Shown here: in pieces, positions 5,134 through 63,598 of the stretch
Layout: every line of letters starts with the position of its first letter
Numbering within the stretch: the first letter of the stretch is position 1
Source of the DNA: Takakia lepidozioides
Taxonomy: Eukaryota; Plantae; Bryophyta
Reading direction: 5' to 3'
Length of the DNA stretch: 64,000 bases
Assembly: GCA_030704615.1 (NCBI GenBank)
Contig: CM060733.1
Coordinates: 6,572,001-6,636,000 of the forward strand
Notes under the pieces: generated by a model
The model's database searches: none
What the model saw: only the letters and a program-made list of their open reading frames with translations
What the model was told of the DNA's origin: nothing
Translations under genes and position numbers: made by a program

Positions 5134-6762
5134 AGAATTCAACATGCATTCAGGGCTGAGTCTGATGAGAGGGAAAAACAGGTTGAAATAGGTCGAAGAA
5201 TAAGGTGCCATCACCACCACCCAACGAGCTCACTTTCATTCAGGGCCAAGTCTGATTAGAGGGAAAAACAGGCTGAAATAGGTCAAAGAAGAACGTGCCA
5301 TCACCTCCACCCAATGAGCTAACTTTCAGAATTCAACATGCATGATTTCAGGGCCGAGACTCTGATGAGAGGGCAAAGAATGCTTACAATAGGTTGAAGA
5401 AGAAGGTGCCCTCATGACCACCACCCAACGAGCTAACTTCAGAATTCAACATGCAATTAGGGCCGAGTCTGATTAGAGGGAAAAACAGGCTGAAATAGGT
5501 CGAAGAAGAAGGTACCCTCACCACCACCCAACTAGCTAACTTTCAAAATTCAACATGCATTCAAGGCCGAGAGTCTGATGAGAGGGCAAAACATGCTACA
5601 ACATGTTGACGAAGAAGGTGCCATCACCACCACCTAACGAGCTAACTTTCAGAATTCAACATGCAATCAGGGCCGAGTCTGATAAGAGGGAAAAACAGGC
5701 TAAGGTGCCCTCACCACCACCCAACTAGCTAACTTTCAGAATTCAACATGCATTCATGGCCAAGAGTCTGATGAGAGGGCAAAACATGCTACAATAGGTT
5801 GAAGAAGAAGGTGCCCTCACCACCACCCAATGAGCTAACTTTCAGAATTCAACATGCATTCACGGCCGAGTTTGATTAGAGGGAAAAACAGACTGAAATA
5901 GGTTGAAGAAGAAGGTGCACTCACCACCACCCAACGAGCTAATTTTCACAATTCAACATGCAATTAGGGCCAAGTCTGATGAGAGGGAAAAACACGTTGA
6001 GATGGGTCGAAAAAAAAGGTGCCCTCACCACCACCCAACGAGCTAACTTTCAGATTTCAACATGCATTCAGGGCCGAGTCTGATGAGAGGGTAAAACAGG
6101 TTGAAATAGGTCGAAGAAGAAGGTGCATTCACCACCACCAAACGAGCTAACTTTCAAAATTCAACATGCATTCAGGGCCGAGTCTGATGAGAGGGAAAAA
6201 CACGTTGAAATAGGTCGACTTCAAAAGAAGGCACCCTCACCACCACCCAATGAGATAACTTTTAGAATTCAACATGCAATCAGGGCCGAGTCTGATGAGA
6301 GGGAAAAACAGGCTGAAATAGGTCGAACAAGAAGACGCCATCACCTCCACCCAACAAGTTAACTTTCAGAATTCAACATGCATTCAGGGCCGAATTGATG
6401 AGAGGGCAAAACAGGCTGAAATAGGTCGAAGAAGAAGGCGCCCTCACCACCACCCAACGAGCTAACTTTCAGAATCCAACAAATTTAGGGCCGAGTCTGA
6501 TGAGAGGGCAAAATAGGCTGAAATAGGTCGAAGAAGAAGGTGCCCTCACCACCACCCAACGAGCTAACTTTCAGATATCAACATGAAAATTTAGGGCCGA
6601 GTCTGATGAGAGGGCAAAACAAGCTGAAATATATAGGTCAAAGAAGAAGATGCTCTCACCACCACCCAACGAGCTAACTTTCCGAATTCAACTTGCACTC
6701 AAGGCCGATTCTGATAAGAGGGAAAACAGGCTGAAATAGGTCGAAGAAGAAGGTGCCCTCAC
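5134..6762. repeat. ~104-bp tandem array, ~16 copies, inside the CACTA
   Basis: Unit agaattcaacatgcattcagggccgagtctgatgagagggaaaaacaggctgaaataggtcgaagaagaaggtgccctcaccaccacccaacgagctaactttc; one orphan copy near 7120-7190. Confidence 0.95.
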
Positions 6763-7904
6763 ATTGTCCTTGACCTTGTGTCATGACCCATGGAGGATTT
6801 GACTGAGAGTACCTCTTGTGTGTGCTACTTGTGTTTGGAGCCAGATAATGTCGGATTGGTCTGTGAGAACCACCACGGTGCAGCTGAGTAGGCAGAGATT
6901 GAAACACGGCCTCTAAGACCAAGCTGACTCTCACAAGAACCTTGTAAACATCACAAAGAATACCAAATCATGGTCCCAGTAGCCAAAAGCCGACATGTGC
7001 AGGATGGACAAACTTCTTCATATCGTACATTAAGAAAAAACTACACCTTGTGATTGCGGTTGTCCCACCATCGTGAAGGATCTTTAAAAACCTCATGCCA
7101 GCTTTGCTCCGTGCTGTAAATTCAGGGCTGAGTTTGATAAGAGCGCAAAAAAGGCTGAATAGGTCAAAGAAGTAGGTGCCCTCACCACATTGTCCTCGAC
7201 TCTCCCAAGAACCTTGTAAACATCACGAAGAATACCAAATCGTGGTATTAACAGGAGCCAAGAGCCGACATTTGCAGGATGGATAAACTTCTTCACATCG
7301 TGCTAAGAAAAAACTACCTATACCTTGCGACTGTGGTTGTCCACCCAAGCTATGCATATCCTGCAGATCATCCCACGCAAACACATCAAAACGATCAAGT
7401 CCCATAACTTAGCTTAACGCAATCCCACAATCCTAAATCCATTTTGAAATATTTGGATGAATGTATCGTAGATGGATGGATTTTGGGTTTTCCATCTATC
7501 TATCCATCCGTTCATTTGGTTTTAACTTTATTGGTTCATCCATCCATTCTAATTTCATCCATTCATCTTTTAGTGAGTTTCTACAACTAACTACAGTCCA
7601 TAATGTAGTTATTTTAAATGGTCAAAAAAATCGTCAAACTGACATAATGAAAAACCAAGGGTGTGTTGTAGTGTACAATGGTCTGGACACTTGTCTGTTT
7701 TTCAAATCTGTCACAGGTGCATAAACCACTTAAAGTTTTTCATGTATCACCATAGAAGTGATATCAATCACTATTGTATAGGCAACCACTCATTAGCGAC
7801 CACTGGAATAGTGGATCCAATTACTGCAGTGTCTTTCACCACCCACTCTCCACCACTTTCAAAGTGGTACAAATCAATGAGAAGTGCATAATAGAAATCC
7901 AGTC

Positions 7905-7976
7905 ATGTCACCATTAGAGTACGTTGGGGTCATCAAAGAGATCTTGAAACTGGATTATGGATGAGTGCATCCCATT
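7905..7976 (+). pseudogene. CACTA transposase DUF4216-like fragment, part upstream of the Gypsy insertion
   Basis: Reads PLEYVGVIKEILKLDYG*VHPI and continues after 19678 as (I)VFHSVWVRANL. Confidence 0.75.
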
Positions 7977-8333
7977 TGTCAAGTTAAATAAGCACAGTGT
8001 GAAACTAGCTAGAATAAAGCTAGTTATTTGTATTTAACACTTGGATTTAGGTCAAGTGTTAAATCAGGTGTCAAGTTTAGTTTGACACCTGACCCGTCTT
8101 ATCTTCACGAGAGCGGCAGTCGCGCAGCTCATCTCTCTCGAGTTGAGCCTGCGCGACCGAGCTCCTTCATGCGTTTAGATCTGAGTGTGCTTATGATGGG
8201 AGTGTAGGTTGTTGTGGGGTGGAGTCCCCATAGCTTGGGGTGCCCCTGGCTTGACTTCTATTTTTAAAGAGTGATAGCAATGGATTTCATATTTCTTGTG
8301 TTGAGAGTGTGTGTCTTTTTAGCTTGTTTATCA
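7977..8333 (+). repeat. 5' LTR segment A (357 bp)
   Basis: Matches 19236..19592 with 3 transitions; starts TG, ends CA. Confidence 0.95.
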
Positions 8334-8350
8334 CTCGAGAGAGATGAGCT
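8333..8350 (+). promoter_or_regulatory. Putative self-priming primer-binding site
   Basis: actcgagagagatgagct directly at the LTR end is the exact reverse complement of LTR 8126..8143; no TGG-type tRNA PBS is seen. Confidence 0.75.
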
Positions 8351-8599
8351 CTTACCTGTGAGTGCAAGGTAGGAGTTGAGGGTTAGCACTTGTATGACTA
8401 CCTGTGCAAAAGTAGTGCTTAGTTTGAGAAGCTTTAAAAAAAAAAAAAAAAAAAAAAACATGCAGGTTTCGATCATCTCTGGTTTCTATGTATATAGATG
8501 GTCCATGGAGGCAGGCTGCATGTCAAGCAGGGGCAAAGAATTGGTGTCTTTCCACTGGTAAGGATAGCGTTGGTTCTGGCATAAGGCCGCAGGGGCAGG

Positions 8600-8863
8600 A
8601 CGGAGCTATACTGCGGGGAAGCAGCCTTCGTTCTGGTCAGTAAGGGCATGAACAGCTCACAGTGGGTGCGGCAAGCATTGGCGAAGCCAGAGCTGGCCAG
8701 ACAAGTTCTTGATGTGAAACTGCTGAAGACCATAGGTATTGACAAGCAGCTGCTGCAGCTGATGGATGTGGCCATGCTTTGCACACACGAGGTGCCTGAT
8801 AGATGCCCCTCCATGCAAGACGTGCTAAAGGTGCTCATTGGAATCCAGCACCAGCAGCGGTAA
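8600..8863 (+). pseudogene. Captured receptor-like kinase C-terminal fragment (subdomains X-XI)
   Basis: QWVRQAL...QVLDVKL...LLQLMDVAMLCTHEVPDRCPSMQDVLKVL resembles the RLK/Pelle 'vA.lCt...P..RPsM.dV.k.L' motif. Confidence 0.7.
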
Positions 8864-10484
8864 AGTGGGTTTTCGTTTCTTCCTCTGCTCGAGCTCCTTC
8901 GAGCAAAGAAAAAGCAGGGTATGTGATTCAGGAAAACAGATCTCTCTCTATCGAATGAAATTCCCGTGGAGGGGGTGAGCACGACAGGCTGCTGAGGGTC
9001 GGATGAGAGAGACGGCGATCATTAGCATCAAGCTGGTTGGACATGGTGGAGTGGACACAAGTAGTGGAAGTACTTCACGGACATGGTTTCCTGCTCCACA
9101 ACAGATGTCCATGAAAGGAAACACAAAAAGCCAGAGAGGGATTGCGCACCACGTGCACTTCTACTCCAGGTTTGCAAAAACAAGTGTTCCTGACTGTGCA
9201 CCACATTCGTTGACAGTAAGTGTGATGTTCAATCGGACCTCGTCCTTTTGGAGGTGTGCAAGATAATATAGTTAATTTCCCACATCGTGATAGTCCAACT
9301 GAAGGTGTTCAAGAGCTGTTGAAGAAGGGGGACGAAGTTCACGTTGACTGAAATGCGCAAAGTGTTCTAGCTCTAGGGAAGGTTTTGACCAGACGATTTG
9401 AGAAAGAAGATTTGCAGCTGGGACATACCCGTATGTGCCTGGTTGGGTGATCTGCACAAATCAGGGCCATTGCAAGTGAGTCCGGAAGATAGGGCTTCCA
9501 ATGCCCCAGATGCAGACCTCTTTCTTTGTGGTGCAGACCAGTTTGTTGCAACTCCGCTGTAGCGTGGAGGATGGTAGAGAGGTTGCCATCTGCGAATCGT
9601 TGCGTGCAAAATGCTGATGTGAGGATGAGAGGCGGACTGAAGAGATAAGTAGGAAATCGCAGCTTCACTGCTTCCCTGGAGGTGCTTGTTCTAAGCCGAG
9701 TGCTGTGGTGTACTAGACTTCCAGGCATTCATTGGACATCCTGTGTGAGTGGAACCAGCTTGAACCTCGTGAGCCTGAAGGGGAGCGAGGGTGATTTCTG
9801 GTTTTGAGTGTTGTGTACGACAAAGAGTAGGTAGCCGTGAGGACTGAGCAGAACCAGGAGCTGGTAGGAGCTGACGGGCATCTCTGCTGCATGGCTTTGG
9901 AGATTGACGAGCATGCAAGCTGCTCATGTGCAACCCTTTGATCAGGTCTTTGATCGGCCGAATCGGCCAACACCCCGCACCACCTCCTTGTTCTTGCTTG
10001 CTTGCGCAGGCTTGGCCATCGTTGCCATCGTCTGCGTCCGCCTTGCCTCTCTCCCCTGAGCATACTGAATGCGTGATTAATGTGAGGCCATTTCTTTCAG
10101 GACCAATTGGCCTTGCAGTTTATGAGTCCAAGGAATTCTTAGGGAACCAGGGAACAGGGAACCAAGACAAGTATTGAAAATAAAATAAAATAAATTCCTT
10201 GTATTTGTTTTGTCTTATTAAATTTTTTTTTAAAAAAAAGGTGTTATGTTTAAAGAGCCTGGTTGGTCATATCTTTGTCAAATGAGCTCCGTTTGACTCA
10301 GTTTTTGAGGGGATAGCTGCAGAAAGGGGAAATCTACCTATCTAGTTCTGGTTTTTGTTTTTTGGACTCTGCTAAAAATCTATGGAATTTTTAGAGTGTG
10401 AGTGTGCCATGAAAGATCCACAATTCTGTTTCTAGAACATGTTCTGGTCTATTTGAGAGACAAATATGTGGATGTCCTCCTTGT

Positions 10485-11234
10485 ATGGCTGGGGGAAATG
10501 AGGACGTAATTGAAGGGCAGGTCTCTTCTCTTAGCCTGTGCACACAAGGGGACAAGATTTATGTTTCCCAAGGAACTCAGACTGATTTGAGTGGAGAACA
10601 GTTGGACGAGTTCATTGCATACTGGGAGTCAGGCATTAGCAGTAGACAACAGACTGCTGTAGTTGGCGTTGAGGGCCTCAATATCGCTTTGGACAGTCAG
10701 AACTCTGTTGGATCCAGCAGTTCTGCAGCTGTAAGTGAAATACCAAAGTGGGTGAAAGCTAGGCTTAGAACACAGCCAAAGACAGCCCCGGGGACCAAGG
10801 TGTTCAGCCACAAGGCTGTGGTGTACTGGAGCAGAGGAGCAGGAGCTACACAAGTTTGTGCAATCAGACAGCGTTGCAGCTGGACACGCTCTGCACAAGG
10901 CAACCACGAGCGGGGGTTCATTAGCGAGGACAAGTTTGTTCTGTTTGAAGGAGATGCAGTCATTCGCAATGAGGACACCCGCAACCGTCTCAAAGCTTTC
11001 GAGTTGAGAGACTATCAGACCCTGCCTTTGTTTTCTTTAGTGTTCAGTGAGCGGGAGATAGCAGAGTGTTGCTTTGTCTCTACCTGGCAGAAAGAGGAGG
11101 AGGGTTGGTTAGAGCGAGCTACTGTAGCTTGGGACAAGGTTAGTGGCAGGTTTCTGGACATAGATATACCTCCTACACCTTACCATCATGCAGAGCGAGG
11201 CACTTTGAGAGAAGTCTGGAAGTTGATAGCATAG
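10485..11234 (+). CDS. Orphan 249-aa ORF upstream of gag in the Gypsy element
   Basis: ATG-initiated, uninterrupted, protein-like composition, same strand as gag-pol; no motif recognised. Confidence 0.5.
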   Translation: MAGGNEDVIEGQVSSLSLCTQGDKIYVSQGTQTDLSGEQLDEFIAYWESGISSRQQTAVVGVEGLNIALDSQNSVGSSSSAAVSEIPKWVKARLRTQPKTAPGTKVFSHKAVVYWSRGAGATQVCAIRQRCSWTRSAQGNHERGFISEDKFVLFEGDAVIRNEDTRNRLKAFELRDYQTLPLFSLVFSEREIAECCFVSTWQKEEEGWLERATVAWDKVSGRFLDIDIPPTPYHHAERGTLREVWKLIA

Positions 11235-11753
11235 ATCAAGATTAGATCTTGCTTGGGCGGGCTTCTATTCTTCCCCTCCATCTCTGTACTATTTTCATTA
11301 CCTTGTACTCGTAGTTGCCAAAGCCTCTCTTGGTGGAGGCCAGTCAGTCCGGGGTTTTGGGCTGGGATATTCTGCAGGATCAGCATTGCAGCTGGATTTT
11401 GGTGTGGGGGTGTTGATGTTTTGATTTCTTGTGTTTGGATCCCCCCCAACACCTGCATGCTTGACTGTGCGCCATGTTGGTTTTGTCTGGGCGCTTGCTT
11501 TCATAGGGATTAGGCCGGATTTGATCACCGGTCAATCCTAGAGTATACTATCGGTGGTGAGGCTGGAGTGATGACCAGCAAGACCACCAGTGTTTCTTCT
11601 ATGGTGAGGCTGGGTTGATGACCAGCCAACCATAGGAGTTCTTGCGGTGGATGCAGGTGCAGGTGCCTTGAGCCATTGGGATATGACCCTTAGACTGCAA
11701 CAGGTGCCCACCCGTGTCACTATTAGATTAGTACTAGAGCCTTATAGTGTCAC

Positions 11754-13960
11754 GTGGAGGAGGTGCACATTGTGAGTGTCATTACGGAGTTACCCAAGGG
11801 TTTTGAGGGGAGTACGGCTACAGGCAGTAACAGTGAGAGTGGGTTCACAAGACGAGGTATTCGGTTCAGACCACCTTCACCGCCACCCTCAACTATTGTA
11901 GAGTCAGACACAGACTCGGAGGCTTCATCAACAGGTGTGCAGTTTCATTCGCCATTGTTGTGGGACGACATAGAGGAGATGTATGGAGCTACCAAGGGGC
12001 CTCGTAGGTACTCTGGAGCTGTGGGCACAATCGAGTTGGATGACTTTATCCAGGAGTTCGACAGCTGGTGTGATTTGTAGCAGATGCGCAATCCACAGCT
12101 ATTCACCCCATTCATGGCGTGGAAGGGACTATTCCAGCATTTGGAAGGCCCGCCTATGGACGATTACCACGAGTTCAGGCGAGGACATGAAGCAGAGATT
12201 GAGGAGTGGAGGATGTATTGGTCACCTGACTACGTCTCCATTACTCGAGGCACGATGCGACCAGTAGCTGCATCAGTACCAATATCTCCCACTGCCAGCA
12301 CTAGTAGTGGAACAAGTAGTGCCGGTACTTCTGCAGGTCGTACCAGTTCAAAAGGTGCTACTACTCCTCCTGCCACGACTACAACACATGTGCCTAGATT
12401 CAACCCGGTGGTGGAGTTCTTCCAGGAGTTGCGGAGAAACTACCAAGGTGTACGGACAGAGAAGCTGCGAAGTTTGCAAGACTTCCAGCGCAAACCCAAT
12501 GAAAGCCTGCGAGAGGCGTACACTCGTATGAGGCGCTTGATAAGTGTGACCCAAGGGGTTACTGAAGCTTAGGCAATCCAGTTTTGGTATGGAATTCTGG
12601 ACAAGGAGCTCAAGAGAAGGGTGCGAGATGCAACCCTGTTACAAGCAGCCCAACCCACATTAGCAGATGTGTTTCTGCTGGCTGAGCGGATTGAGCTCAA
12701 CATGGTGGAGGAGCGAATCGTCACCATTGGATTTGGCAAGGACATGCTTGCACGAGGCGCAGCTGCCAGCCCATAGGCACAAGGTACTGCCCAGCAGCGT
12801 GGTCAGGGGGGCAAGGTTTCCCAACCCAAGTTCCATGGAGTTTACAGGGGACCTCAGGTGCAGAGGCCCGTGGCATCTTTTGCAGGCCAACAACAACCAG
12901 GGGTGGTATGTTGGACATGTGGAGGACCCCATGTCAAGAAAGATTGCCCAGAGAATGGCAGAAGGCCGACACAAGCACAACCTGCACAGTTGCAGTGTGG
13001 GCATTGTGGCAAGTATGGACATGAAGATGCCCAGTGTTATGACTTGCACCCTGAGTTGCGCCCAGGCCAGTTCCAAGGGAACAATGGTGGTCGGGGGCGA
13101 GGTGGACCAGCCCAGAGAGGACGAGGTGGTCGGGCACGAGGTGCAGGCCAAGGGCAAGCTCAACATGGCCAAGGACGCGGAGGTCAGGGTGTTGACCAAG
13201 GCATGGCCAACCGGCTTCAGCAGCTAGAGCAGAGGCTCGCTGCCATGGCTACAGCTCAGGCGGTACCGGCTCCCAGGCGGGATGGTCCACCTCTTGTTCC
13301 TGAGGGAGGAGATATAGGAGGCATGGGATTCATGTGCGAAGCAGCACTACCACTAGAGCAGGTGGAGTCTGCTGCAGCCGTGACTCGAGGAGCAGCACGA
13401 GTTCCTGAGCCACGAGGTGCAGAGGTGGAGTTGGATCCACAACGTGGGGAGGCAAGCCGTCAAGCAAGGCTGCCTTGGTCATTCACCTTGGCGGAGACAG
13501 TGTCAACGCCATCCATGGCACCTAGTTCTCGCCCGACTGTTACCGAGGCGGAGGTTTCTATGCCATTGGGGAGAGCTACACGTGCAACACTGACACCTGC
13601 TGCCAAGGCTAGTGCAGCCGGTGTGTTGTTGGGGGCAGCCACCTCTGTGTGTCAAGCCCCACTGTTCTCGGCAACCATGATTGCGACGCCGGGGGTAAGG
13701 CCAGTTGCAGTGTTCAGACTAGCAGCAACACTCTGTGAGAGTGGGGAGGTCACTTCATCTTCTGCGGAGTTACTGGAAGGTATAGTGGCAAAGGGATCCT
13801 CAGATTTGAGGGTCAAGACTGCCACGGCTGCGCCATGGCAAGCTGCAGCTGCCAGGTTGACGAAGCTGTCAGCTAGGCCAGCCTTTGAGCGCGCCATGGT
13901 GACACCTGGAGTTGTCTTGTTAGACAACCAGGATGGCATTTTCTCATTGAGTGGACGGCA
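11754..13960 (+). pseudogene. Gypsy gag (stops at 12078 and 12570, frameshifts)
   Basis: LDDFIQEFDSWC, FQRKPNESLREAYTRM, zinc knuckles CWTCGGPHVKKDC and CGHCGKYGHEDAQC, RGG-rich tract. Confidence 0.88.
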
Positions 13961-14400
13961 GGCAAGAAGTACCGGCCACTTTGGGTCTTGTTGGACTCGG
14001 GGGCTCAGCCACTGATGTTGGGCAGAGCTGCTATCACAGGTTTGGGCCTCATGGAGGCGGATATGGAGCCTTGTCCTTTCCAGATACAGACATCTCTGGG
14101 AGGATCAGAGCAAGCTCGGGGCATGACACGACATCAGTTGGCCATTAGACTGCAGCCGGATCATCCTAGAGATGGCTCAGTGATGCGAGCCAAGGCCATT
14201 GTGACAGACGCGGTCTCTTACGATGTCCTCGTTGGTGGGGCAGTGTTATACCCCATGGGCTTCACCCTGGACTTTTGGGAGGAATCAGCATCCTACAGGC
14301 CTGGATGGCAATCAGGCGATGGTCATCGTGCACAGCTCCCTGTGACATTCATTGGGGGTATTGCGGCTGCCCAGTGGGGCAAAATGCCAACACTAGCCGC
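13960..14400 (+). pseudogene. Retropepsin aspartic protease domain
   Basis: (V)LLDSGAQPLMLG catalytic motif; YDVLVGG. Confidence 0.88.
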
Positions 14401-14523
14401 CTTTACAGCTGCAGTTAGTTGGCCTGGAGAGTTGCTGGAAGGCAATGCCCATGCAGAGGATGTCACCAAGACCACCTCAATTGTGGCCACTGGACACCAC
14501 ACCTCTTGTGTGGCAGTGCCCGG

Positions 14524-15500
14524 ATGAAGGCATATGCCTTCTGGACTTGTTTGGCGGGATCAGCACTGGCTTGGCTGCAGTGCTGCAGGCACGTGTACGA
14601 GTTTGACGTTACTTGTATGTGGAGAGGGATGAGACTACACGACGCGTCTCACTGCGCCATGTTGCTCAGATGGTGCAGCAGTACCCTGAGTTGTTGCCGG
14701 TGTCTGCAGTTCGTGGATATCAGCAGGCCTTGCTAGCAGACATTGCGTTGCTGGGGGCGCAGGATTTGGAGCGGGTTGGCTCCATTGATCTGGTAGTGGC
14801 AGGTTGGCCCTGCCAAGGGCATTCATCAGCCGGACATGGCAATGGATTGCAAGACTCAAGGACGGGTCTGTTTTGGGAGATGGTGCGGATTTTGCGCCAC
14901 TTGCAGCTTCATCAAGCTGTATCTCCAGCATACATCTTGGAGAATGTGCCACTGATGGGTGATTCTCGGGCCAGGGTGATGGCCAGTGTGCATCAAGTCC
15001 GGTCGTGGCTTGGGTCAGCAGTGCTGCTGGATGCAGCTGCAGTGGGGTCACGGGCTCATCGTCCACGGCTTTGGTGGACTAACTTGATGCCACCCGCACT
15101 GCTCAAGCGTGCATTTGATGGGGTGCAGCGGCCAACACACCTCACATTGGATAACATTTTGGACACGGGGAGGCAGTCTCAACGTGTGAGACACAATGAC
15201 CGTTCGCCTTTGGCAGTGGTCAACAGGGTGGGTCAACCACGAACAGCATTATCTACACTGCTCAGCTTCCCAGGATCCCATGCTTTTTGGGATGGTGGAC
15301 CTGGCCTCCTGTGGGATGCTCAATTGCAGCAGTTAGTGGAGCCTAATGCCGACGAGCGAGAGCGGGCTATGGGGTTTTCCACTGGGACCACGGCGGTGCC
15401 TTCTCTTTCTGAGGCATCACGGCGTCAGGTGTTGGGGCAAGCAATGGATCTCAATTGCTTGACCTGGATTATCAGCTTGGCTATGGCTGAGCAACGTAGA
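14524..15500 (+). pseudogene. C5 DNA cytosine methyltransferase domain within pol (one in-frame TGA at 14604)
   Basis: Motif I LLDLFGGISTG (~14538, same frame as ORF 14613), II YVERD, III ADI, IV IDLVVAGWPCQG, VI YILENVP, VIII AHRPRLWW, IX ERERAMGF, X RRQVLGQAM. Confidence 0.92.
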
Positions 15501-15844
15501 GTGCGGAGTGCACTCCCCTTCATGGTCTCTCTGCCTACCGAGACGGTACAGGCAGCGAGTGGGGGCGAGCCGGTGAGGACCACGGGGTGTAGGCATCCAT
15601 GGCACACGTGGGAGGTGCTCGAGGTTCAGAGGGAGTTGGCAGCCAAGGCAGCTGTGATGGATGAGGTTGGGGATTCTTCTCGGGATGAGGAGGTTCTCAA
15701 TGATGAGATGATGGGGCAGGATGAGGCCTTGTCATTGACTGAGCAGGAAGGGAGTACTGCTCAAGAGGTTGCAGCATAGCAACCACGGGACGCGTCCTCT
15801 ACCTCTAAGCCCACTGGACTTAAGGTTGCAGTTACGGAGGACAA

Positions 15845-16860
15845 TTGGGAGCTGACATTGGACCCATTGTCACCGGAGGAGAGAGACGACGTATACGGCG
15901 GTTCCTGAGGGCTTACAGGAATTGCTTTGCCTTCAGTTTGAAGGACTTGGGAGCACTGAAGGGTCAAGAGATCCGTATTGAGTTGGCCACTGACACGCCA
16001 ATCTTTCGGAGACCCTATAGATACAGTGACATGGAGAGGTCTTTGATTCAGATGAGGACTCAAACGAGACAGGTTTGGTGGAGCTCTCTGGTGGAGAGTA
16101 TGCTTCAGCCACAGTGATGCCAGCCAAGAAGGATGTCTATGGCAATTGGACTGAGAGACGTATGTGCGGTGATTACCGGCCTGTAAATCGTCAGACCAAG
16201 TCCGATAGGTATGCCATGCCGACACCAGAGGAGATCTTTGATGCCATTGGGCATTCCAAGGTCTTTAGCACGTTGGATTTACGATCCGGATATCACCAGT
16301 TGCCGATCAAGGAGGCGGATAAGCAAAAGACGGCATTCTGGGGGATCAATGAGCACGGGAATGATTGCCTATACCAGTGGCGGTTCTTACCATTTGGGCT
16401 TAAAAACGCTCCCGCTGAGTTTCAAAGAGTCATGGACAGGATTCTAGCAGGGGTGGAGTTTGCTCGGTGCTACATAGATGACATCATCATCTTTAGTGCT
16501 ACGGTGGAGGAGCATGAGAGACACCTTCAGGGGGTATTTGAGCGCTTGAGGGCGCACGGATTGAAGTTACATCCGGGAAAGTGCAAGTTTTTCCACAACC
16601 AGATTGAGTATCTGGGTCACATATATATCCTGGAGGATTGGGGGTACAGCAGACTAAGGTAGAGTCCATTGCACAGGTTCCACGCCCCACGGATGTGAGC
16701 CGAGTTCGAGCTTTCATGGGGTTAGCAAACTATTACAGACGGTTTGTTAAGGGATTTAGTGCCATTGCAAAGGCTCTAACCAAGCTGACCAAGGTGGACC
16801 AGGAATGGCAGTGGGAAGATGAGCAAGAACAAGCTTTTCAAGAGCTCAAGGCGAGGTTGA
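15845..16860 (+). pseudogene. Gypsy reverse transcriptase (frameshifted)
   Basis: PIFRRPYRYS, RMCGDYRPVN, FSTLDLRSGYHQ, LPFGLKNAPAEFQ, YIDDIIIFS, KCKFF, YLGH, FMGLANYYRRFV. Confidence 0.95.
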
Positions 16861-16879
16861 CCTCGGCGACCTATCAGGG

Positions 16880-18648
16880 GGCGTCCTTTTCAGCTGCATA
16901 CAGATTGGAGCATGCTGGGGCTTGGAGCGGTGCTCACACAGGTGGATGATGAGGGAAGAGAGTTCGTAGTGGCTTATGCTAGCCGCTCGAACAATGCTGC
17001 AGAGTCTAAGTATAGCTCATATGAGGGAGAATGCTTAGTTGCAGTGTGGGCCGTGGCACACTTCAGGTGCTATCTATACGGCAATCTCTTCACCCTTGTC
17101 ACGGATCACCAACCACTCAAGTGGTTGATGGAGTCAGACAAGCTTACGGGGAAGCTTGCACGGTGGGCACTCATCCTTCAAGAGTATGACTTTCAGGTGG
17201 TGCATCGACCGGGTTTGGTCAATCGCAATGCAGATGGGTTGAGTCGCAATCCATGCACGAGCCAGCAGGATGACACTGGAGCTCGGTGGCATGGTGAGAC
17301 GGACGAGGAGATGGTGCCCGGATGGCATGCATCTGCATTTCTGTGTATCTTGGCAGCGGAAGGCCAGGTTGGACCTGCAACAGGGATGACTGTAGATCAA
17401 GTGTCTGAGGACCCTGAGGCCAGCAATGAGCAAGGTGGCGCCAAAGATATACATGAGGATTCAGTTGTGTTGGACTACCTCCGCACTGGAGACACTGCAG
17501 CCACTGTGACTGCCAAGGAGAGGGATCGGATCCTACAACGAGCCAAGAGGTTCAAGTGGGAGGGGACACACCTGCTCCGAGTGTGGGAGGATGGTCGAGT
17601 GAGGATTGTGCCTCACCCAACACAGCGAGCACGGTTAGTGCGGCATGCCCATGAGGAGTTGGGGCATTTTGGGGTGCGACGCACTCATAGTCTACTGCAG
17701 GGGCAGTATTGGTGGCGTGGTATGCATACAGAGGTGCAACAATTTGTGGCTAGGTGCATGGTGTGTGACAGGGTGCGTGCTTCATTCAACGCCCCTACTC
17801 CACAATTGCACCCTCTTCCGATCATGGGATTGGGCTACAGGTGGAGTCTTGACTTCGCAGGGCCGTTGCCACTGACCATGCGCCACAACAAGTACGTGTT
17901 GGTGATGGTGGAGCACTTCTCCAAGTGGATTGAATTGGTTCCATTGCCTGATAAGGCTAGTGAGGGAGCTGCGTATGCATTCTTGGATTGTGTGCTTAGC
18001 CGATTCGGTGCTCCAGCTGAGGTACTCACGGACCAAGGGAGAGAGTTCTTGGGGGAGTTTCAGGCTTTGTGTGACAAGGCCTTGATAGACCACCGCACCA
18101 CTTCTCGGGATCATCCTGAGGCCGATGGCTTGGCAGAGAGAGTTGTTCAGACAGTAAAGAGGGGTTTGCGCAAGTATGGCTTGCAGAAGGGACACCTAGG
18201 AGATTGGGACCTTCAGTTACCCTGGTTAGCCATGGGCTACAGGTTCAGCAAGCAAGCATCACTTGCCTCCTTCTCACCATACTTTCTTCTCTTTGGCCGT
18301 GAGCCGGATTTGCCTACATCCATTCGCAGAGAAGCTGCTACAGTTCTTAATCTTGACGATCCGGACGTGTGGGCACGTGCATGTGAGCAGCGTGCAGAGT
18401 TGTTCAAGAAAGTCATGCCCATGGCTTTCGAGAACCTTGCCATTGCACAACACCGTGATACGTTGAGGTATGCTACCATACGTGGTGGGGGCTATCGTCC
18501 TGGGGTTCGGAGATTCAACCCTGGTGACTATGTCTATCTGCAGCAGACTGCTCCTACGACCTTGGATGTGACTGCAGGACGTGTTATTTTGAGGGTTCGA
18601 GAGGTCTTGCCCTCAGGCGTCTTGGTCTTGGAGGGTCGGATGGCATAA
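16880..18648 (+). pseudogene. RNase H plus DDE integrase
   Basis: LHTDWS, GLGAVL, VAYASR, TDHQPL, NADGLSR; HHCC (HEELGH...CMVC); catalytic D (SLDFAGP), D (LTDQG), E (GLAERVV). Confidence 0.95.
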
Positions 18649-18746
18649 CTTGGAAGGACCATGTGCGTAATTGTGCGCCATGTCACCTTCCGAATGTCGA
18701 TGGCAGGATTGACCCAAACCTGGCAGTGGTATCTGCAGGTTTGAGG

Positions 18747-18880
18747 TGCATGTTGTGTGGGTCTGCTAAAGGGGCAGCCACCATGCTGGTGTGTGATCGA
18801 TGCTCTAGAGGTGGCATATGGGATGCTTGACTCCACCTCTTGAGATGGTTCCGGATGGGGATTGGTTATGTCCACATTGC
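18747..18880 (+). pseudogene. PHD finger (C4HC3) at the integrase C-terminus
   Basis: CMLCGSAKGAATMLVCDRCSRG[W]HMGCLTPPLEMVPDGDWLCPHC after correcting a 1-nt frameshift near 18811; linked to INT by a frameshift near 18638 (DGITWKDHVRNCAPCHLP). Confidence 0.9.
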
Positions 18881-19138
18881 ATTGGATAATGGGAGTGGAT
18901 ACAACCATGGAAGGCTAACAAGAAATGCAAGGCCAAGCTACTAGGAGACCTTGAACACACAAGATCTTGGCTCAAGTTCACAGATTGCAAGACGGCGACT
19001 AACGATGGGGCTACTCTTGTATCCGGCCTCTTGGTTGATAGAGTTTGAGCACGATAGGGACAGTGATAGAGGACTTAGTACGGCTGTGGCTATTACATCT
19101 TGTAGCTATCTGGAGTTAGAGGGACCTATCCACCAGCT

Positions 19139-19147
19139 AGGGGGCGA
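19139..19147 (+). promoter_or_regulatory. Polypurine tract
   Basis: agggggcga just before the TG of the 3' LTR at 19149. Confidence 0.75.
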
Positions 19148-19148
19148 T

Positions 19149-19592
19149 TGTGGCAGACTACTTTATTGTGCATATATGTGTGGTGTGGTTTGGACAGCGA
19201 TGTAGTTGTGTAGCGATACGTATGCGCACGACAGCTGTCAAGTTAAATAAGCACAGTGTGAAACTAGCTAGAATAAAGCTAGTTATTTGTATTTAACACT
19301 TGGATTTAGGTCAAGTGTTAAATCAGGTGTCAAGTTTAGTTTGACACCTGACCCGTCTTATCTTCACGAGAGCGGCAGTCGCGCAGCTCATCTCTCTCGA
19401 GTTGAGCCTGCGCGACCGAGCTCCTTCATGCGTTTAGATCTGAGTGTGCTTATGATGGGAGTGTAGGTTGTTGTGGGGTGGAGTCCCCATAGCTTGGGGT
19501 GCCCCTGGCTCGACTTCTATTTTTAAAGAGTGATAGCGATGGATTTCATATTTCTTGTGTTGAGAGTGTGTGTCTTTTTAGCTTATTTATCA
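19149..19592 (+). repeat. Complete 3' LTR = B (19149-19233) + gc + A (19236-19592)
   Basis: Starts TG right after the PPT; ends with the same ...ttatca that precedes the PBS in the 5' copy. Confidence 0.85.
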
Positions 19593-19593
19593 T

Positions 19594-19678
19594 TGTGGCA
19601 GACTACTTTATTGTGCATATATGTGTGGTGTGGTTTGGACAGCGATGTAGTTGTGTAGCGATACGTATGCGCACGACA
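19594..19678 (+). repeat. Second copy of LTR segment B (85 bp), forming the element's 3' terminus
   Basis: Identical to 19149..19233; followed by TSD catt. Confidence 0.92.
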
Positions 19679-20117
19679 CATTGTATTTCATTCTGTTTGG
19701 GTGAGGGCCAACCTCGTTGGACAAAATGCTACAATGAAGCGGGATTCTTATGATTTTCTACTTGCGAATTTTGGGAGGATGTTACCCGAAATGAAGTGTC
19801 GTTCATCTTTCCATCTCAAGTTGAATTATGTGTTCTTTTCGGATGAGTTCCCAAGTTCGGAGTGGAAGGTAGTCCTTCAGAAGGATCCAAGAGCAAAAAA
19901 AATTGTGGACGTAGATCAATGGGACATTGGAGAAAATGCAGATTTACCTTATCAGCTTAGCCAATACTGGCCTAGGTCATTAGATGGTGTCATGGCTCTA
20001 AATAAAGAAGAGCTGGCTATACTGGATACCATTCAAGCGGCATTTGTACAATCAACCGCTATTCTAGTTGAGGAAAATGATTCGGAGAGTGAGGACTATG
20101 ATTCAGATTCAGAATAA
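19679..20117 (+). pseudogene. CACTA transposase DUF4216-like C-terminal fragment
   Basis: VWVRANL...KRDSYDFLLANF...VFFSDEFPSSEWKVVLQKDPR, acidic tail. Confidence 0.75.
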
Positions 20118-22860: not shown

Positions 22861-25800
22861 CTTAGGGAATGAAGCTTGCATTGACACAAGCTAATCTTAG
22901 CCCCTATTGGCACTTGGAATTCAAAAAATTTAAAAAGAAAAAGAAAAAAGAAAAACTGAGCCCTAGCGAACTGCCCTTGTCGTAGATGTTCAGTTTCACT
23001 ACCTATAACCCTAAATATTTTGTTGTCTCTTTCACCCTTACCTTTGTTGGCTGGGTACAAATTTATAACCTTGAGCAATGTAGGTTTCTATCTTTCAAGA
23101 AAATGCATTAAATAGTTCAACAGTCCTTGTATCGCATGCTTCTTTGTCCACAGTCCGTCCATCACGTGCTTCTGTGTCCCGTTTCTAGCACCAATGACAT
23201 GGCTCTAAAGTGCGTCTTCGTGCCGATGCGTACCTGCTTCCATGGTAATAGGACCTCCTCGTCCTGTCCTCGGTTATAGGGCTTGCTTCTCCATCCTCTA
23301 AGCCCTATGCTTGCTTAGTGGGCCAAGCGTGAGCCCAGCTCGCAAGCTCACGAGGCTGGGCTCATGATCTAGCATTCCTCTTTGAAGATAACGCTGGACT
23401 CGTGGGGCACACATGCTCTTGGTCGTGATCGTCTTTTACGCTTTGACACACTATGCATATGGATCAAGCACGGGTTCGCCTGTGTTTTGGTTTACTAAAA
23501 CAAACGATGTTGCGTCATGGCTAGTTGCAATAGGCCGCCGGCGATATTTTTTCAAAGACGGATATTTAAATCTTTGTTTGTGAATTCAATTCAAGGAGTT
23601 TCTAAGGTATCTTAGGCTCCTATTAAAAGTCCAAAAGAGGTCGCTGGGATTTTGTTGTATTAAGGACCTCAAAATGACAAGCCGAAGCCATTATCGAACG
23701 CTGTTGGTGGGGAACTTTTGTGTGTGTATCTAAATGGTGGGGCAAAGACTGTTCGAGAGAAATTTCAGCCCCAAGCGTTGATCTCTCCACACCCTAAAAA
23801 TTTGCTCCACAATAAAAACAACGATTTCACGGGATTTGTGACCCATCTGTTTTTCATGGGTGATGGTTGAATCCAATGGACCTGCAGATTGGTGGGGATT
23901 TCAAGGGTATCCCAAGAAAATTTATGGCAAGTTTGAGGAACTGTGGCTCAATTGCAACCAGGTCCAATATGTGGCTTGATTTTATTGCAAGCGTGTGAGC
24001 TAACGGGTACGGCCCGCGAGGTACAGCCGGGGACCCCCGCTCCGGCAGCCTCGTCGGGAGCTGACGCACCATGTCAAATCATCCCCACCCCCCTCCGACC
24101 CCTCCGCCCGCTGCCCCACGATAGCCCCGCACGAGGCTCCCGAGCCCCCCTGACAACCCCGCGCAAACAACCCCCGCCCGGGACCCCTGACCCCCGCCCC
24201 ACCGCTGGCCGGCGGCGCCCCACAGCACGACCCGATCTCCAACACGTGGCGGCCCCCCCGTTGTGGATCCCCTCACTGGGTTGTTTGATCCCCCTTCCAG
24301 TGCCGGAGTGCTCCCCCATCCCCATCTCCAGCCCCCCCCATGTGGCGATACCTTGAACGGCGATCCCTCCCCCATCCATCCAACCTCAATTGAATGGATG
24401 ACGGCGGATGAAGCCCCATGACGCGCCCATCGCCACGTGGTGCTCGCCGCCCGGCGATCCCCTCCTCCCAATCCACGGCGCGTTCCCCCGAGATGTTTTC
24501 GCCCCCCCGACGCGCACTCTTGATCTCCCTTCCGGACGGGAGTGACCCCAACCCTAATTGTCCCGCCACGTGTGGATCACCCGGACAGTTGTCGATCCCC
24601 TCGCCGCACCATCCGACCTCACAAAAAAGGGATGTTGTGTGTCATCCGCCCCTCATCCCCACCGTCGATCCCTCTTCCAAAATCAATGGATCCCGAACGT
24701 CGTCCCGATCACCCGACACGTCGCCGCAACCCCCCCCCCCCCCCCCCTCCGAACCCCTCCGGGTGATCCCCGTCCAATGCGGGTGATGATCCCCCTGACC
24801 ACCACATCGCACCCGGCAACGTGAGCGTCCCCCACCCCCCCCCCCCCCCCCCCGCCGCCGATCCCCTCTTCCCATCCACGGGGTGCGATCCCTCGACACG
24901 TCGCAGCTCCCCTGACCTGGCTTGATCCCCACACTCAGACCCGCAGTGATCCCCCACCCCTAATCGCCCGCCACATGCGCTCCCCCAAACGTCGATCCCC
25001 TGCTTCATCCATCCAACCTCAAAACAATGGATGTTAGTGGTCATCGGCCCCTCATCCCCCGCCATCCTCCCGTGCAGCGGATGGAAGGCCCCATGGCACG
25101 CCCACCGCGCAGAGGCGCCCACTCACTTCAAGAGAACGGTGCCTAAAAAGGGGAAAGCATGCAGGAGGCAAGCTCTTAGACTCCAAGGGCCAATAGTTGC
25201 TCTGTTGTGATAAAGTCTTGCCTTCACATTTGTGGTTTCCGATGGTCTCTATGTGTTCTTTGTAATGCATGTTGCATGTTTGCATTGTTTGCTCTTTATT
25301 TTGTCAAAATGCTATGCTCTCTTGCTCCGAGTTATTCCCACTCCGCCGACATAGTTCTCATCATTGTTCAGGTTCCATTGTTCTTATGGAATTGAGGACA
25401 AGCGCACGAAGTGATATCTGTCAATAGAACATTCTTTGAAGAGAAGGAACGGTAGGAGAGGGTGTGTGCTGGATGTTCATTGCCTTATACAACAACACAC
25501 AAAGGGCCGAGACGATCGAAGAAAAAGCGTTCAGGGAGAGTCCATCAGAAGGGTTGCCTCTGTTAGTGTAGGATTGGACGATGATACCGGATCCTTCTCT
25601 TGCTTATCATAACATACTACAACAAAAATCATGTTGATGGATGTGACAAGGTCTGCCAATTGCCACATTGCCCCACTTCAAGTAACACCCGTTCGTGCAT
25701 GCACCTCACCTTAGTGAAGAGGTTAAGATTGTGGATAATGAATAGCAATATACGTGTTGGGTGTCGTCGATGCTGAAATCATGGCCCAATAGGAACAAAC

Positions 25801-35804: not shown

Positions 35805-37796
35805 CGGCAACGAGCACACGACGCCGAAATACAGAAAATAAAAAGCAAGGAACAGAAGCAAGAGAAAACAAGGAAGAGCACACGGATTGCAACGAACAAA
35901 AGGAAAACACACAGCATAGACAGCAAAGAGGATATGAGTAGAGCAACTGAAAAACCACAACGAAGAGCCGCCACCGAAGAGTCGCTTTGCGAGGAAGACA
36001 TTCTGCACGTGCAGTGTACCTAGGGGAGCGGGCACGTGGGGGAGCAGGGGATCAGTCGATGGACACGTGTCAATAGCACCAAAGTGGGGATCATTGATGT
36101 CGACACGTGGGGAGATCTGGGCGGTCATAAGGGGGAGCAGGCATGGGGAGATGTGAAGGGGGAGCAAACCCTTAGCCACTCCCAGAACATGGGGATCAAA
36201 AGTAGGGGGACCAGACACGTAGGGGGATGTTAGTAGAGGGGAGCTGACATGTGCGGAGAGTATTGGATATGACATGCATGGCGATTCTGTGGTCAAGGAG
36301 GTGACACGTGGGCAGCGAAGATAGGGGGAGTGGCGGGGGGGACCAGACCGTGGGGGAGCAAAAACTTGAGAGGGATTGGATGTTTGGGGGTTTGCAAGTG
36401 ACGGATTCAGGGAGGGAGACAACTCATGAGAGGAAGGGGACCAAAACTGCAGGGGCAGGGAACATGAGAAGAGACCGTTGTGTAGGACGAGTAAAACACC
36501 ATGCTAGGTCAAAAAAGAAATCCCTATAAGTGCATGCATTATGAGCTGGCCGGTATACAACCATCTTGGACTCTCCAACCTCCATCAATCCTATTTAGCT
36601 GCTCGATACCCAACCATGTTCGATTATGCAACACACAGGGGGATCACTGCGGGTCCGGAGTGGGGATCAAGCCAGGTCGGGGGGAGCGGCGATGTGTTGG
36701 GGATCGTGCCGTGGATGGGAGAGGGGATCAGCGGCGGGGGGGGGGGGGGGGGGGGGTGTGGGGGGGGCGCGCCACGTGCCGTCCGATGGTGGAGGGGATC
36801 AGTCACCGCATTGGACGGGGATCAACGGAGGGGGGGGGGGGGGGCAACGTGTCGGGGGATCAGGCCGTCGATGGGAAGAGGGGATCGACGGCGGGGGGAG
36901 CGGGAGGATGGCGGGGATGAGGGGCGGATGACACACAACATCCATTGTTTGTTGAGGTCGGATGGATGCGCAGGGGATCGACGGTCCGGGGGATCCGCAC
37001 GTGGCGGGCGATTAGGGTTGGGGGATCACTCCCGGTCCGGAAGGGGGATCAAGGCGCGTCGGGGGAGCGGCAACGTCTCGGGGGAGCACGCCGTGGATGG
37101 GAGGAGTGGATCGACGGTGGTGAGAGCGCCACGTGGTGATGGGCGCGTCATGGGGTCTTCATCCGGCCGTCATCCATTCAATTGAGGTTGGATGGATGGG
37201 AGGGATCGACGGTTCGGGGTGGCGCCACGTGGTTGGAGATGGGGGTGGGGGATCACTCCGGCATGGAAGGGGATCAACCCAGTGAGGGGATCCACAGCGG
37301 CCGCCACGTCACTGGAGATCGGGCGGTTGCTGTGGGGCGCCGCTCGGCGGTGGGGCGGGGTCATGGGTCCCGGGCGGGAGGGCGGGCGCGGGGGTCAGGG
37401 GGGGCGCGGGTAGCAGCGGCGGCGGGCGGGGGCGGGGGCAGCAGGCAGAGGGGGTCGGAGGTGGTGGGGATGATTTGAACGGGGTTCCGGCTGTACCTTG
37501 CGGGCTGTACCCGTCAGCTCACAAGCTTGAAATAAAATCAAGCCACATCCATATTGGCCAATTTTGGAGCTTTTCGAACGTCCCTGACCACCCAAATTCG
37601 ATTGGAGGGATCTTTCAGGGCTAAAATATTTCACAAATTATATGATGCATCGACACTGTATTTTATATTTTTTATTTTTTTTACAGTAAAAGGGGAAGGA
37701 GGCCCTGGGAAATATATTGAAAATAACGGGAAAAAATAACCCGTGGAGATACAGCCTTAAAGCGTATTACGGGGATACCACCCCGGAGCCAAGAAC

Positions 37797-52995: not shown

Positions 52996-55900
52996 TCAGT
53001 AGTATTCTGCCCCATTCCTTGTCTTGCATATGAGGGGGACACCATCCTCACGCCAGACAATGTGATTCTCACACAGTGCAGCTACGGCCTCAACATACAG
53101 AACATGCTCCTGCAAATCAGCCCCAGTTCCCTCTCACAGTTACTCATGACAGACTAAACTAGCAAAAAATATACCTCCCAACCTGAGAAACCTGAGCTAC
53201 TGAATGCAGGGATTTTTATTCCATTTAAGAGGCCACTGGATACTAGCACAAGGAGATCATATCATTTTGGATGGTAATAAATTGTTGAAGGGAAGGTCTC
53301 TAGGAGCTGATCTAAAACATAGGCAACCTGGAAGCATCCAAATGTTGCGAATAGAAGGGAACCTACAACCACTCAAATTGCCACGATCTGTACAAACAAA
53401 CTTGTGCCATCAACAGACATTTGTTGGCTGGTCAAAATGCATGTCCGTACTATGTTGTTGCTCATTACTCCTGAGAATTACTCCACTAATGAGCTGCACT
53501 GTGGTTCTGTTCAGGACCAGGTGGTTCTATCCCAGATAGGCTTAGTTCTGTTGATCATACAATTCTTCCAATGGCTATTAAGTATCCCTGACAAATCTAT
53601 GCAATAGCTTTGGGTCAAGAGTACAAACCTCTTTCAGGACACGAGCAGCCAAGTCCGATGGAGTATCATGGGGTAGAACTGGCACTACCCTCTGTGCCAG
53701 TATTGGACCGGTGTCATACTTCTCATCTACAAAATGGATGGTAGCCCCTGAATACCTGCCCACCACACAGCAATCCGAGTCTCAACTGTCACTGCCAACA
53801 TACTTAATAAAAACCAAATCAAAGCTCAATCTTAGTATTTGGATTTTACCAAATTCCTCAAAAGTTTGTCCCAGGAGCAAGATAGACCAAGATAAAAGCA
53901 GCTTTTGTTGACAGTTAATCACCAGATGAAAATACTCAAGTCTTCTCAAACATTCTTCCCTCTAAAAGATTCCACTTTCAGCGATTGGCTCTGTTTAAGG
54001 GCATGACAAGCAACTGTGAAAGAAAATGTAGCCATCACTGCCAACCACAATTCCGGCGCTACAATTCTCTCCTGCATTAATGGAAGGGATCTCATGCTGA
54101 AAGTAAGTACTACAGGCACCTATCAAAGCTTGCATTTGCAATGTCTAACTGCATCAAGGTAGCAGAGAAACATACGACTCGACTCAATCATCTATGAGAA
54201 ACAGCACAAATCAACAGCAATCAGGACCTCACTTGGAGAGTGCTTGGTCTGTGATTGGCTCAGACACTTGATGTCATCACAAATGATCAGGCAAACTGTG
54301 AACTATCATCAGTCATCACCACCAATCATAGCAATAGTCCAACATGAAATTTGGCCAGGAGAACAGCACATCTCAACAGGTTCATGTGACTAGTGCAAGG
54401 TAAGTGTTTGGCTCAGAAACTTGATGTCATCACGAATGATCAGGCAAACTGTGAAATATCATCAGTCATCACCACCAATCATAGTCATTGTCCTACATGA
54501 AATTTGGCCAGGAGAACAGCACATCGCAACAGGAGCATGTGGCTACTGTAAGGTAAAGTGCGCAGTATTTGGCTCAGAAACTTGATGTCATCACGAATGA
54601 TCAGGCAAACTGTGAAATATCATCAGTCATCATCACCAATTGTAAAGAACTGCCCTAATTTTTCCTTGTATTTATTGTAACCTTAAAAGGCGGAATATCT
54701 CAGCAGGCATTCTGCCTGGCGTAAGGCCCTGGTCAGTGGGTATTCTGCACGGCAGAAGGCCCAGCTCAGATTTCTCTTACTTCTCTTTTTTTCTTTCTAG
54801 GCGACGTGGCAGTGTAATATTGGCAGCGGGGTAGAAATTATGACAATTCTTTACTGCCCTCAGGCTTCAGGCCCTCAAATCCAGGAATGCCCTCCACTCA
54901 GGGCCTTCTCCTATACATAATAATTGTCCTACATGAAACTTGGCCACGAGAACAACACATCTCAACAGGATCATGTGGCTAGTGCAAGGTAAAGTGGCAG
55001 TGTTTGGCTCAGAAACTTGATGTCATCAAGGGAATAATCAACAAACATTTTCCACATCTGACATATATATTTTTCCTGGAGGCACATTTCTTTGCCATTT
55101 GGTCCACATCCATCTACACATCCAAAAGCCTTACCGGGCACCGGAACGGATGACAGCCTCATGCACCTTGGAGCCGTAGAAGCCCTTGCCACCAAATGCA
55201 GGCAGCAATGCAGGGTGTATGTTGAGAACAGCACAGGGATAAGCCTGCACCAGTTCCACTGGTAGCAGCCTAAGGTAGCCTGCCAATAGGACATACTTAA
55301 CGCCTGCAAGCCTACATAAATCACTGTTAGGCCATTCTCCACCCACGCTCTCAAATGAGACTCATTCATAGCTAAGACCTTCTTGCTTGCTTGTAAAAAG
55401 TGTAATGACAACCATATCTATCCCGCAGCCATCTCTACAGAACGGAAAAACTTACACTAACCAACCAATTCTGAGCAAGTTAGACCTCAGAAGCACGAGA
55501 AGTCACTGGCAGCTTGCAGGGAAATACTGAAAAGTACGTCCATCAACAGCCTAAGACGTCCACAACATAATTGCATTCTCTCTCTCTCTCTCTCCTTCCC
55601 TCCCTTGAATGTGGCCGTGTTCATTGTAACAACACCCAAGATGTGCCTGGTCTTTCATACTTCCTGTCTTAATCCTTTCATGGTGATTGAAGAACTGTGG
55701 ATTTGAGGATTTTTTTTACCTCTCTCTTTCCTTGAATGTTGCTAATTATCTTTATAGACAGCATTGAAGAGTTGCCTGATCCCGTTATTATGTGGAGACT
55801 TTCTTCAGATTGCCCGTTGTGTGGGCAATCTGAAGACAGTATTCATTTTCTGATACACTGTCCGGGGTTCTCTCACCAAAGAGACGCTCTCTTCAAATCT

Positions 55901-63380: not shown

Positions 63381-63475
63381 CACACAGCGACCATAATCTC
63401 GTCTACATCGGTGAAGAGACGACACGGACAGTGGAACGTCTTCTCTCTCCTCTCTCTCTATTTTTGAAGGAAGCG

Positions 63476-63598
63476 TTTAGGGTTTAGACCTGCTATCAGC
63501 CGTCGAGTATTACCTAATACCGGAATCGTCCAGTGTATATTTCTATACTGTTCAGTAAATCCTGGGATGACTGGTAAATGCCGGTAAGTTTAGGGTTT
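63476..63598. promoter_or_regulatory. Two telo-boxes in the purN/BMS1 bidirectional promoter
   Basis: tttagggttt at 63476-63485 and 63589-63598. Confidence 0.65.

Follow-up and report, generated by a model that had tools for sequence, protein, structure and literature searches.

A Dnmt3-like methyltransferase-bearing Ty3/Gypsy element of Takakia lepidozioides with split repeats, a self-complementary primer site and a predicted internal attachment palindrome

The window analysed here, a 64-kb stretch of Takakia lepidozioides DNA, carries at 7977-19678 a Ty3/Gypsy element that encodes a Dnmt3-like methyltransferase and a PHD finger. Outside the element lie host exons on the minus strand (440-1144 and 62652-63476; kinesin motor and formyl transferase by Pfam) and a 104-nt tandem array of 14.6 copies (5240-6762), whose unit had no Rfam match and contains CTGATGAG and GAAA words that we take to be reminiscent of a hammerhead core. 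Long GC-rich inverted repeats at 23969-25059 and 36709-37548, about 12-13 kb apart, look like the ends of a large DNA transposon. Further along are an open LINE-type ORF of 1535 codons with endonuclease and reverse transcriptase matches in Pfam (57449-62056) and an exact 249-nt repeat (55809-56057 and 61671-61919). The features of the element and its borders are as follows.

7973-7976, + strand: left target-site duplication (CATT, 4 nt), from the sequence and an empty site in run X5
7977-8333, + strand: repeat A1, starting with TGTC, the left integrated end, and ending with TCA, the predicted U5 end
8099-8105, + strand: TATA-position element TTATCTT, a non-canonical TATA 31-32 nt upstream of 8131, the spacing being that suggested by relatives
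8126-8143, + strand: self-primer arm, with the RNA 5' end predicted at 8126-8132 and a cut predicted after 8142
8269-8276, + strand: U5 segment whose complement spans the end of the LTR and bases 1-3 of the primer site, a possible flanking duplex according to folds
8334-8350, + strand: primer-binding site, 17 nt, no TGG
8351-11930, + strand: long leader; it includes an A run (8436-8458) and an ORF of 273 codons (10413-11234), from the sequence and family comparison
11934-13300, + strand: gag-like region with zinc-knuckle-like motifs and three in-frame stops
13982-14400, + strand: protease-like region with an LLDSGA motif, conserved in 31/80 loci
14540-15500, + strand: C5 cytosine methyltransferase, Dnmt3-like (Pfam PF00145, E 1.6e-13)
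15914-17200, + strand: reverse transcriptase and RNase H, interrupted by frame changes
17600-18890, + strand: DDE integrase (HHCC, D-D35-E) followed by a PHD finger, from Pfam and the sequence
19135-19147, + strand: polypurine tract, directly before B1 and in the same position in relatives
19149-19233, + strand: repeat B1, 85 nt, from the sequence
19230-19239, no strand: palindrome GACA-GC-TGTC at the B1|A2 joint, the predicted integrase attachment site
19236-19592, + strand: repeat A2, from the sequence
19593, + strand: A2|B2 joint, a single T, the predicted end-to-end closure point of the DNA copy
19594-19678, + strand: repeat B2, identical to B1 and ending with GACA, the right integrated end
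19679-19682, + strand: right target-site duplication (CATT, 4 nt), from the sequence

Pfam searches of the ORFs of the element returned C5 methyltransferase, reverse transcriptase, RNase H and rve integrase; the best solved relative of the methyltransferase is DNMT3A, and the closest solved sequence to the intact relative P0002 is Ty3 Gag-Pol. The gag-like region (11934-13300) and the protease-like region (13982-14400), the latter recognised by its LLDSGA motif, had no Pfam match. The D-D35-E triad of the integrase is intact. A PHD finger was detected by Pfam in 4/5 relatives scanned, no chromodomain family matched in the window element or in any of these five, and no tyrosine recombinase matched among the ORFs of the element. 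For the finger of P0002 (983-1029) the closest solved relatives come from KDM5A and KDM5B. Fingers of the KDM5A/KDM5B type read unmethylated H3K4, and this one is possibly a targeting signal. The gene order gag-PR-RT-RH-IN with a Ty3-like reverse transcriptase and a DDE integrase, the primer site, the polypurine tract, the TG...CA ends and the target duplication are all those of Ty3/Gypsy elements; the integrated ends are not the outer ends of two whole LTRs, as this group would have them. The element is best filed, by protein ancestry only, as an atypical Ty3/Gypsy variant.

In the window copy, gag is interrupted by three stops and pol by several frame changes, and the repeats are still about 99% identical. 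The leader of this copy is some 2.4 kb longer than that of the related locus L010. Besides the A run, it contains an 86-codon stretch (within 8436-8860) without a Pfam match, which we take to resemble the C-terminal end of a plant receptor kinase, and the 273-codon ORF, which has a counterpart in 0/80 related loci and no usable match in an atlas search; this extra content is possibly captured host RNA. The family comparison was made with the best 80 of 518 related loci, which derive from metagenome assemblies, where repeats can be chimeric. Five of them (L003, L047, L050 at 10286-11076, L067 and L071) have about 0.8 kb extra within the integrase match, and in L050 and L003 this insert repeats the methyltransferase region at 73-76%; L057 and L060 have no methyltransferase match.

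The closest named relatives are the liverworts Riccia, Calypogeia and Marchantia and the moss Sphagnum. Over the integrase region, identity reaches 79% with Riccia sorocarpa and 85% with Calypogeia fissa, with further relatives in Klebsormidium and Closterium (K. nitens proteins up to 56%); the methyltransferase is related to those of Marchantia polymorpha (up to 72% identical), Sphagnum and K. nitens (45%). None of the viral contigs searched contained a relative. Methylase-bearing transposons have been stated to be absent from land plants such as tracheophytes (PMC6338049), and a term search of PMC9985172 and PMC8566409 returned no mention of such elements in bryophytes.

A preliminary description of this locus, made from the sequence alone, had reported that the end of the 5' LTR and the bases following it are the reverse complement of an internal LTR segment, and that a TGG-starting tRNA primer site is lacking, and had inferred that the transcript folds back to prime its own reverse transcription. 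The complementarity is exact: 8126-8143 pairs with 8333-8350 over 18/18 positions, the flanking positions mismatch on both sides, and the site has no TGG. Since 8333 is the last base of repeat A, the primer site proper comprises the 17 nt 8334-8350, and the pairing enters the repeat by one base. No complement longer than 11 nt arose in 5000 dinucleotide shuffles, against the 18 nt observed, and the same geometry slid across the window gave a single 18, presumably the element itself, and at most 14 elsewhere. The leader from 8126 to 8360 folds with a z of -5.7 (0/200 shuffles as good); in the folding ensemble the pairs at 8127-8139 have a probability of 0.8-1.0, and the last four, 8140-8143, are outcompeted by U5 stems. 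The complementarity of the U5 segment at 8269-8276 is near chance length. ARAGORN found no tRNA in the window or in the related loci. The primer sequence also has a local hairpin partner just upstream of or around it, which the 3' copy alone contains in the RNA (window 19378-19416, L010 10493-10530 and L067 4770-4810 by folds; L005 8826-8855 and L061 4255-4296 by eye) and is absent in L056; this hairpin may keep the 3' copy from competing for the primer site.

Conservation of the pairing across copies had been suggested as a check on this reading, and the pairing is kept in six repeat types though the letters change completely. In each of these types, namely the window, the L010 group, the L056 group, L005, L061 and L068, a different primer sequence is complementary to the primer site of the same copy. 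The pairing core is AGTTCTTTGAG in the L010 group and AGTTTTTCTAGA in the L056 group, and same-copy pairing covers 19/20 nt in L005, 16 nt in L061 and 14 nt in L068. Among 18 5' ends tested, the pairing of 12 was equalled by at most 3 of 200 shuffles; the six failures comprise L012, L020 and L050, with deletions or changes, and L036, L037 and L062, with no same-copy pair. L026 passes by way of a best helix that uses the U5 segment and not the primer, the primer itself being intact. Immediately past the core the pairing is lost in most cases, which fits an RNA that begins at this point. L010 and L005 have a few further paired bases upstream of the core, so the pairing edge is no proof of the start. 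TATAAA lies 31-32 nt upstream of the core in 19/20 rows of the L056 group retrieved with a TATAAA-core pattern (permitted spacing 28-36), the odd row lying outside an element, and 31 nt upstream in L001, L010 (3' copy), L024 and L026 of the L010 group. With six own-matching pairs, TATAAA at 31-32 nt in two subfamilies and TGG at 0/16 primer sites, the element very probably primes reverse transcription with its own RNA in the manner of Tf1. The covariation of primer and site may come partly from re-copying of the site off the primer in each cycle.

The preliminary description had placed the transcription start near 8126, and from the sequence this is the probable position of the RNA 5' end: in relatives the start is AG preceded by a pyrimidine, and the 18 nt of the site are all retained in a divergent X7 contig with different flanks. 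A start at 8131 is a weaker candidate, to which the position 31-32 nt downstream of TTATCTT and the variants listed for the window's own family point, as these fall in the outer five pairs. They are 8126 A>G (35% in X1, 56% in X5), the only primer-arm variant among them, which retains a G-U pair, and an uncompensated change at 8348 carried by about 22% of the X1 depth.

The layout of the element, A-internal-B-A-B, was missed in the preliminary description. The repeat treated there as the LTR is real (7977-8333 and 19236-19592, 357 nt, 3 mismatches), yet it is only part A of a split repeat. Downstream of the polypurine tract the order is B1, GC, A2, one T and B2, and the copied LTR, bounded by the primer site and the polypurine tract, is B-GC-A (19149-19592). 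The 4-nt duplication flanks the start of A and the end of B and is exact in 6/7 full A-internal-B-A-B elements, the window included; L058 is without it, and a 5-nt duplication matched in 0/13 elements. A contig of run X5 (403 nt, depth 9.43) fits 7884-7976 and 19679-19899 with a 4-nt overlap; as it had the same length and depth in both searches, we take it as one contig representing the empty site. The X1 depth steps at 7976, with a rise of about 200-fold at that bin, and at 19678, where 63 contigs diverge (agreement 0.44). Treating A alone as the LTR was rejected, as no duplication surrounds A1...A2 and the polypurine tract lies 88 nt from A2; B as a chance duplication or a nested insert was rejected as well.

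The same layout recurs at 26 3' ends (about 22 independent). About half of all 3' ends have B only (21 distinct flanks in 25 loci, vs about 22 independent B-A-B ends), four of these loci recurring under two different assembly names; among full A-internal-B elements the duplication is exact in 3/6, and one more has 3 of 4 bases. Possible sources of the B-only ends are one-LTR circles or doubly cut copies, recombination between B1 and B2, and collapse during assembly. None of 18 5' ends (about 15 independent) showed the mirror product, A-B-A-internal-B, vs 7 full A-internal-B-A-B elements. Automated calls of the polypurine tract were often wrong, and only eye-checked rows of that table were used.

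Each half of the B|A joint, GACA-GC-TGTC, corresponds to one of the integrated ends of the element. The spacer is 2 nt long at every one of the 22 internal B|A joints listed (about 19 independent), 7 of which match the palindrome exactly, the others deviating mostly by transitions. L005, L007, L061 and L068, with LTRs that have no match to the other LTRs, carry the palindrome as well, 105-170 nt past the tract. Across repeat types B is without TG at a fixed start. A ends with TCA in most repeat types, and this retained TCA leaves CA on the right end of a linear copy, which counts against the reading of the palindrome as an internal attachment site.

The proposed mechanism is built from these positions. 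Briefly, the RNA would start at 8126-8132, its first 12-17 nt would pair with the complementary 8334-8350, and RNase H would cut after about 8142, by analogy with Tf1. Ordinary LTR copying from the primer site and the polypurine tract would then give a linear B-A-internal-B-A molecule, the ends of which could be joined by host end-joining or by an end-to-end jump of the reverse transcriptase, leaving a variable A|B joint. Finally, integrase is predicted to cut GACA^GC on both strands of the palindrome adjoining the A|B joint, releasing two CA-3' ends with 2-nt 5' overhangs for insertion with the 4-nt duplication that is seen, along with the TG...CA ends, in the genome. A cut after CA on each strand of the palindrome would give two canonical processed ends, and closure followed by an internal cut would give the A-internal-B-A-B layout observed. 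It is fairly probable that the DNA copy closes end to end before the DDE integrase opens the internal palindrome, and the whole scheme, from self-priming to closure and cutting, is likewise favoured with moderate confidence. As the mirror product is missing, random opening of a circle at one or the other palindrome is not compatible with the data; integrase has to be supposed to prefer the palindrome that adjoins the closure, and our guess is that the integration complex stays at the closure point.

The most serious competitor accepts self-priming and holds that B2 and the A|B joint are inherited, via the RNA or by extended plus-strand synthesis on a nicked intermediate, that no closed two-LTR circle forms, and that the palindromic ends arise otherwise. 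It accounts more simply for the single opening seen (B upstream in 0/18 5' ends), and no circle has been observed; on the standard LTR scheme, however, a minus strand primed after A1 and moved to A2 would not be expected to copy B2. The joints also speak against inheritance: A|B differs in length between close copies, whereas B|A is constant. The L056 group has three A|B length classes in 12 independent copies (7, 4 and 1), and the L010 group has three in 7 copies, one of which has lost about 20 nt and kept a piece of the tract. The joint types do not cluster on a 13-row tree (4 changes for 4 rows), which is star-like with 2 starred branches and of low power, and this is what end joining in every cycle would give. 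Inheritance of B2 is a possible but less favoured account.

Priming by a host RNA, a tRNA half or another small RNA, with the self-complementarity serving as a regulatory fold or arising as a by-product of template switching, is improbable. The outer pairs do vary (8126, 8348) and U5 competes with the duplex at its 3' end, as this account would allow, but six unrelated site sequences each match their own LTR, TGG is absent in 16/16, the pairing cores begin at TATA-predicted starts and Rfam found nothing at 7900-8500. Still less probable is that the layout was produced by a tyrosine recombinase acting in trans, as in PAT or Ngaro, or by rearrangement following ordinary integration: A1-B1-A2-B2 repeats are a hallmark of PAT, Ngaro and Viper (PMC4157794), but the ORFs of the element have no recombinase match and an intact D-D35-E, unrelated targets carry the 4-nt duplication next to TG...CA ends in 6/7, and the layout is repeated at 26 3' ends, about 22 of them independent.

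Closure and internal cutting would set the element beside several known systems. PAT, Toc, Ngaro and Viper integrate through a circle. Their split direct repeats are arranged as A-coding-B-A-B (PMC4157794), as here; unlike them, the present element has a DDE integrase, a primer site, a polypurine tract, TG...CA ends and a target duplication. The integrase of foamy virus cuts the covalent palindrome of the circle junction after CA on both strands to leave 2-nt 5' overhangs (PMC1180852), and HIV-1 two-LTR circles have been reported as an integration reserve (PMC4372172). The likeness is that of a retroviral-type integrase cutting a covalent palindrome, here as a prediction; the difference is that in those viruses the junction of the circle is itself the palindrome and the LTRs remain whole in the provirus, whereas in the present element the palindrome is found 85-185 nt inside the LTR, with a permuted product, and this is apparently the normal route of the family.

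As for priming, the element resembles Tf1/Tf2 and the Tf1/sushi chromoviruses in a primer site that directly follows the LTR and can pair with the predicted 5' end of the RNA, with no tRNA site, and its pairing cores of 11-12 nt in two subfamilies are Tf1/Tf2-like. The pretzel structure of Tf1 and the definition of the group have been described (bioRxiv 2022.12.06.519325; PMC5341516), and for SM-Tcn1 neither priming mode was found in the account given in PMC2864245. Here, a three-duplex pretzel is not clearly recognisable: candidate partners occur upstream in 5/7 copies (5-6 nt) and downstream in 2/7, near chance. Unlike Tf1/Tf2, the element has a PHD finger and no chromodomain, a methyltransferase, split repeats, a 4-nt duplication and integrated ends that are not the ends of the copied LTR. 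The element is therefore not a member of the Tf1/sushi group, whose priming the preliminary description had cited: the primer site is complementary to the element's own R region, as in Tf1/sushi elements (Tcn1), but a PHD finger stands in place of the chromodomain. By anatomy the element belongs with KnitGypsy-Dnmt3 of Klebsormidium nitens, which encodes a Dnmt3-like methyltransferase in pol alongside Ty3/Gypsy domains (de Mendoza et al. 2018, PMC5890265) and for which the legend of Fig. 4c gives a DIRS-type repeat arrangement that is also found here; the pairwise matches of integrase and methyltransferase to K. nitens proteins agree with this. KnitGypsy-Dnmt3 is from a charophyte, unlike the closest named relatives of the present element, which are liverworts and Sphagnum. 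The parts of PMC5890265 that were searched are silent on how KnitGypsy-Dnmt3 is primed, on a target duplication, on an attachment site and on a route of integration. The active PHD-bearing element Gypsy-7a_cRei of Chlamydomonas has an LTR divided into subparts, and the final 8 bp of its right LTR are missing from the left one (PMC9940879, Fig. 6A legend), possibly a related layout in a lab-active element.

The layout is thus already in print in one figure legend (PMC5890265), whereas the mechanism of closure followed by cutting was not found in the published sources covered; literature on split or permuted LTRs together with Gypsy and an integrase was searched without a match, and no such priming or integration model for the family was found outside subscription journals and Repbase Reports. 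What is new is the conserved internal attachment palindrome and the route it implies. Taken by itself, self-priming carries a known mechanism over into a lineage that lacks the chromodomain. The internal attachment site weighs more, as it would explain mechanistically a layout previously mentioned in no more than a figure legend. Whether LTR circles are real integration precursors is a long-standing dispute in retrovirology, and the genomes compared here appear to record the circle route as the norm of a family. An internal site also predicts that LTR finders mis-call the ends and target duplications of such elements. The mechanism is testable because close relatives, with methyltransferases up to 72% identical, exist in Marchantia polymorpha. 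In its broadest form, for which we see even odds, the finding would mean that a charophyte and bryophyte LTR lineage moved its attachment site from the DNA ends to an LTR-internal palindrome, so that a closed two-LTR circle became the obligatory precursor of every fertile insertion. The lineage would have converged on the life cycle of DIRS and Ngaro elements while using an integrase of retroviral type, a self-primer and a DNA methyltransferase of its own.
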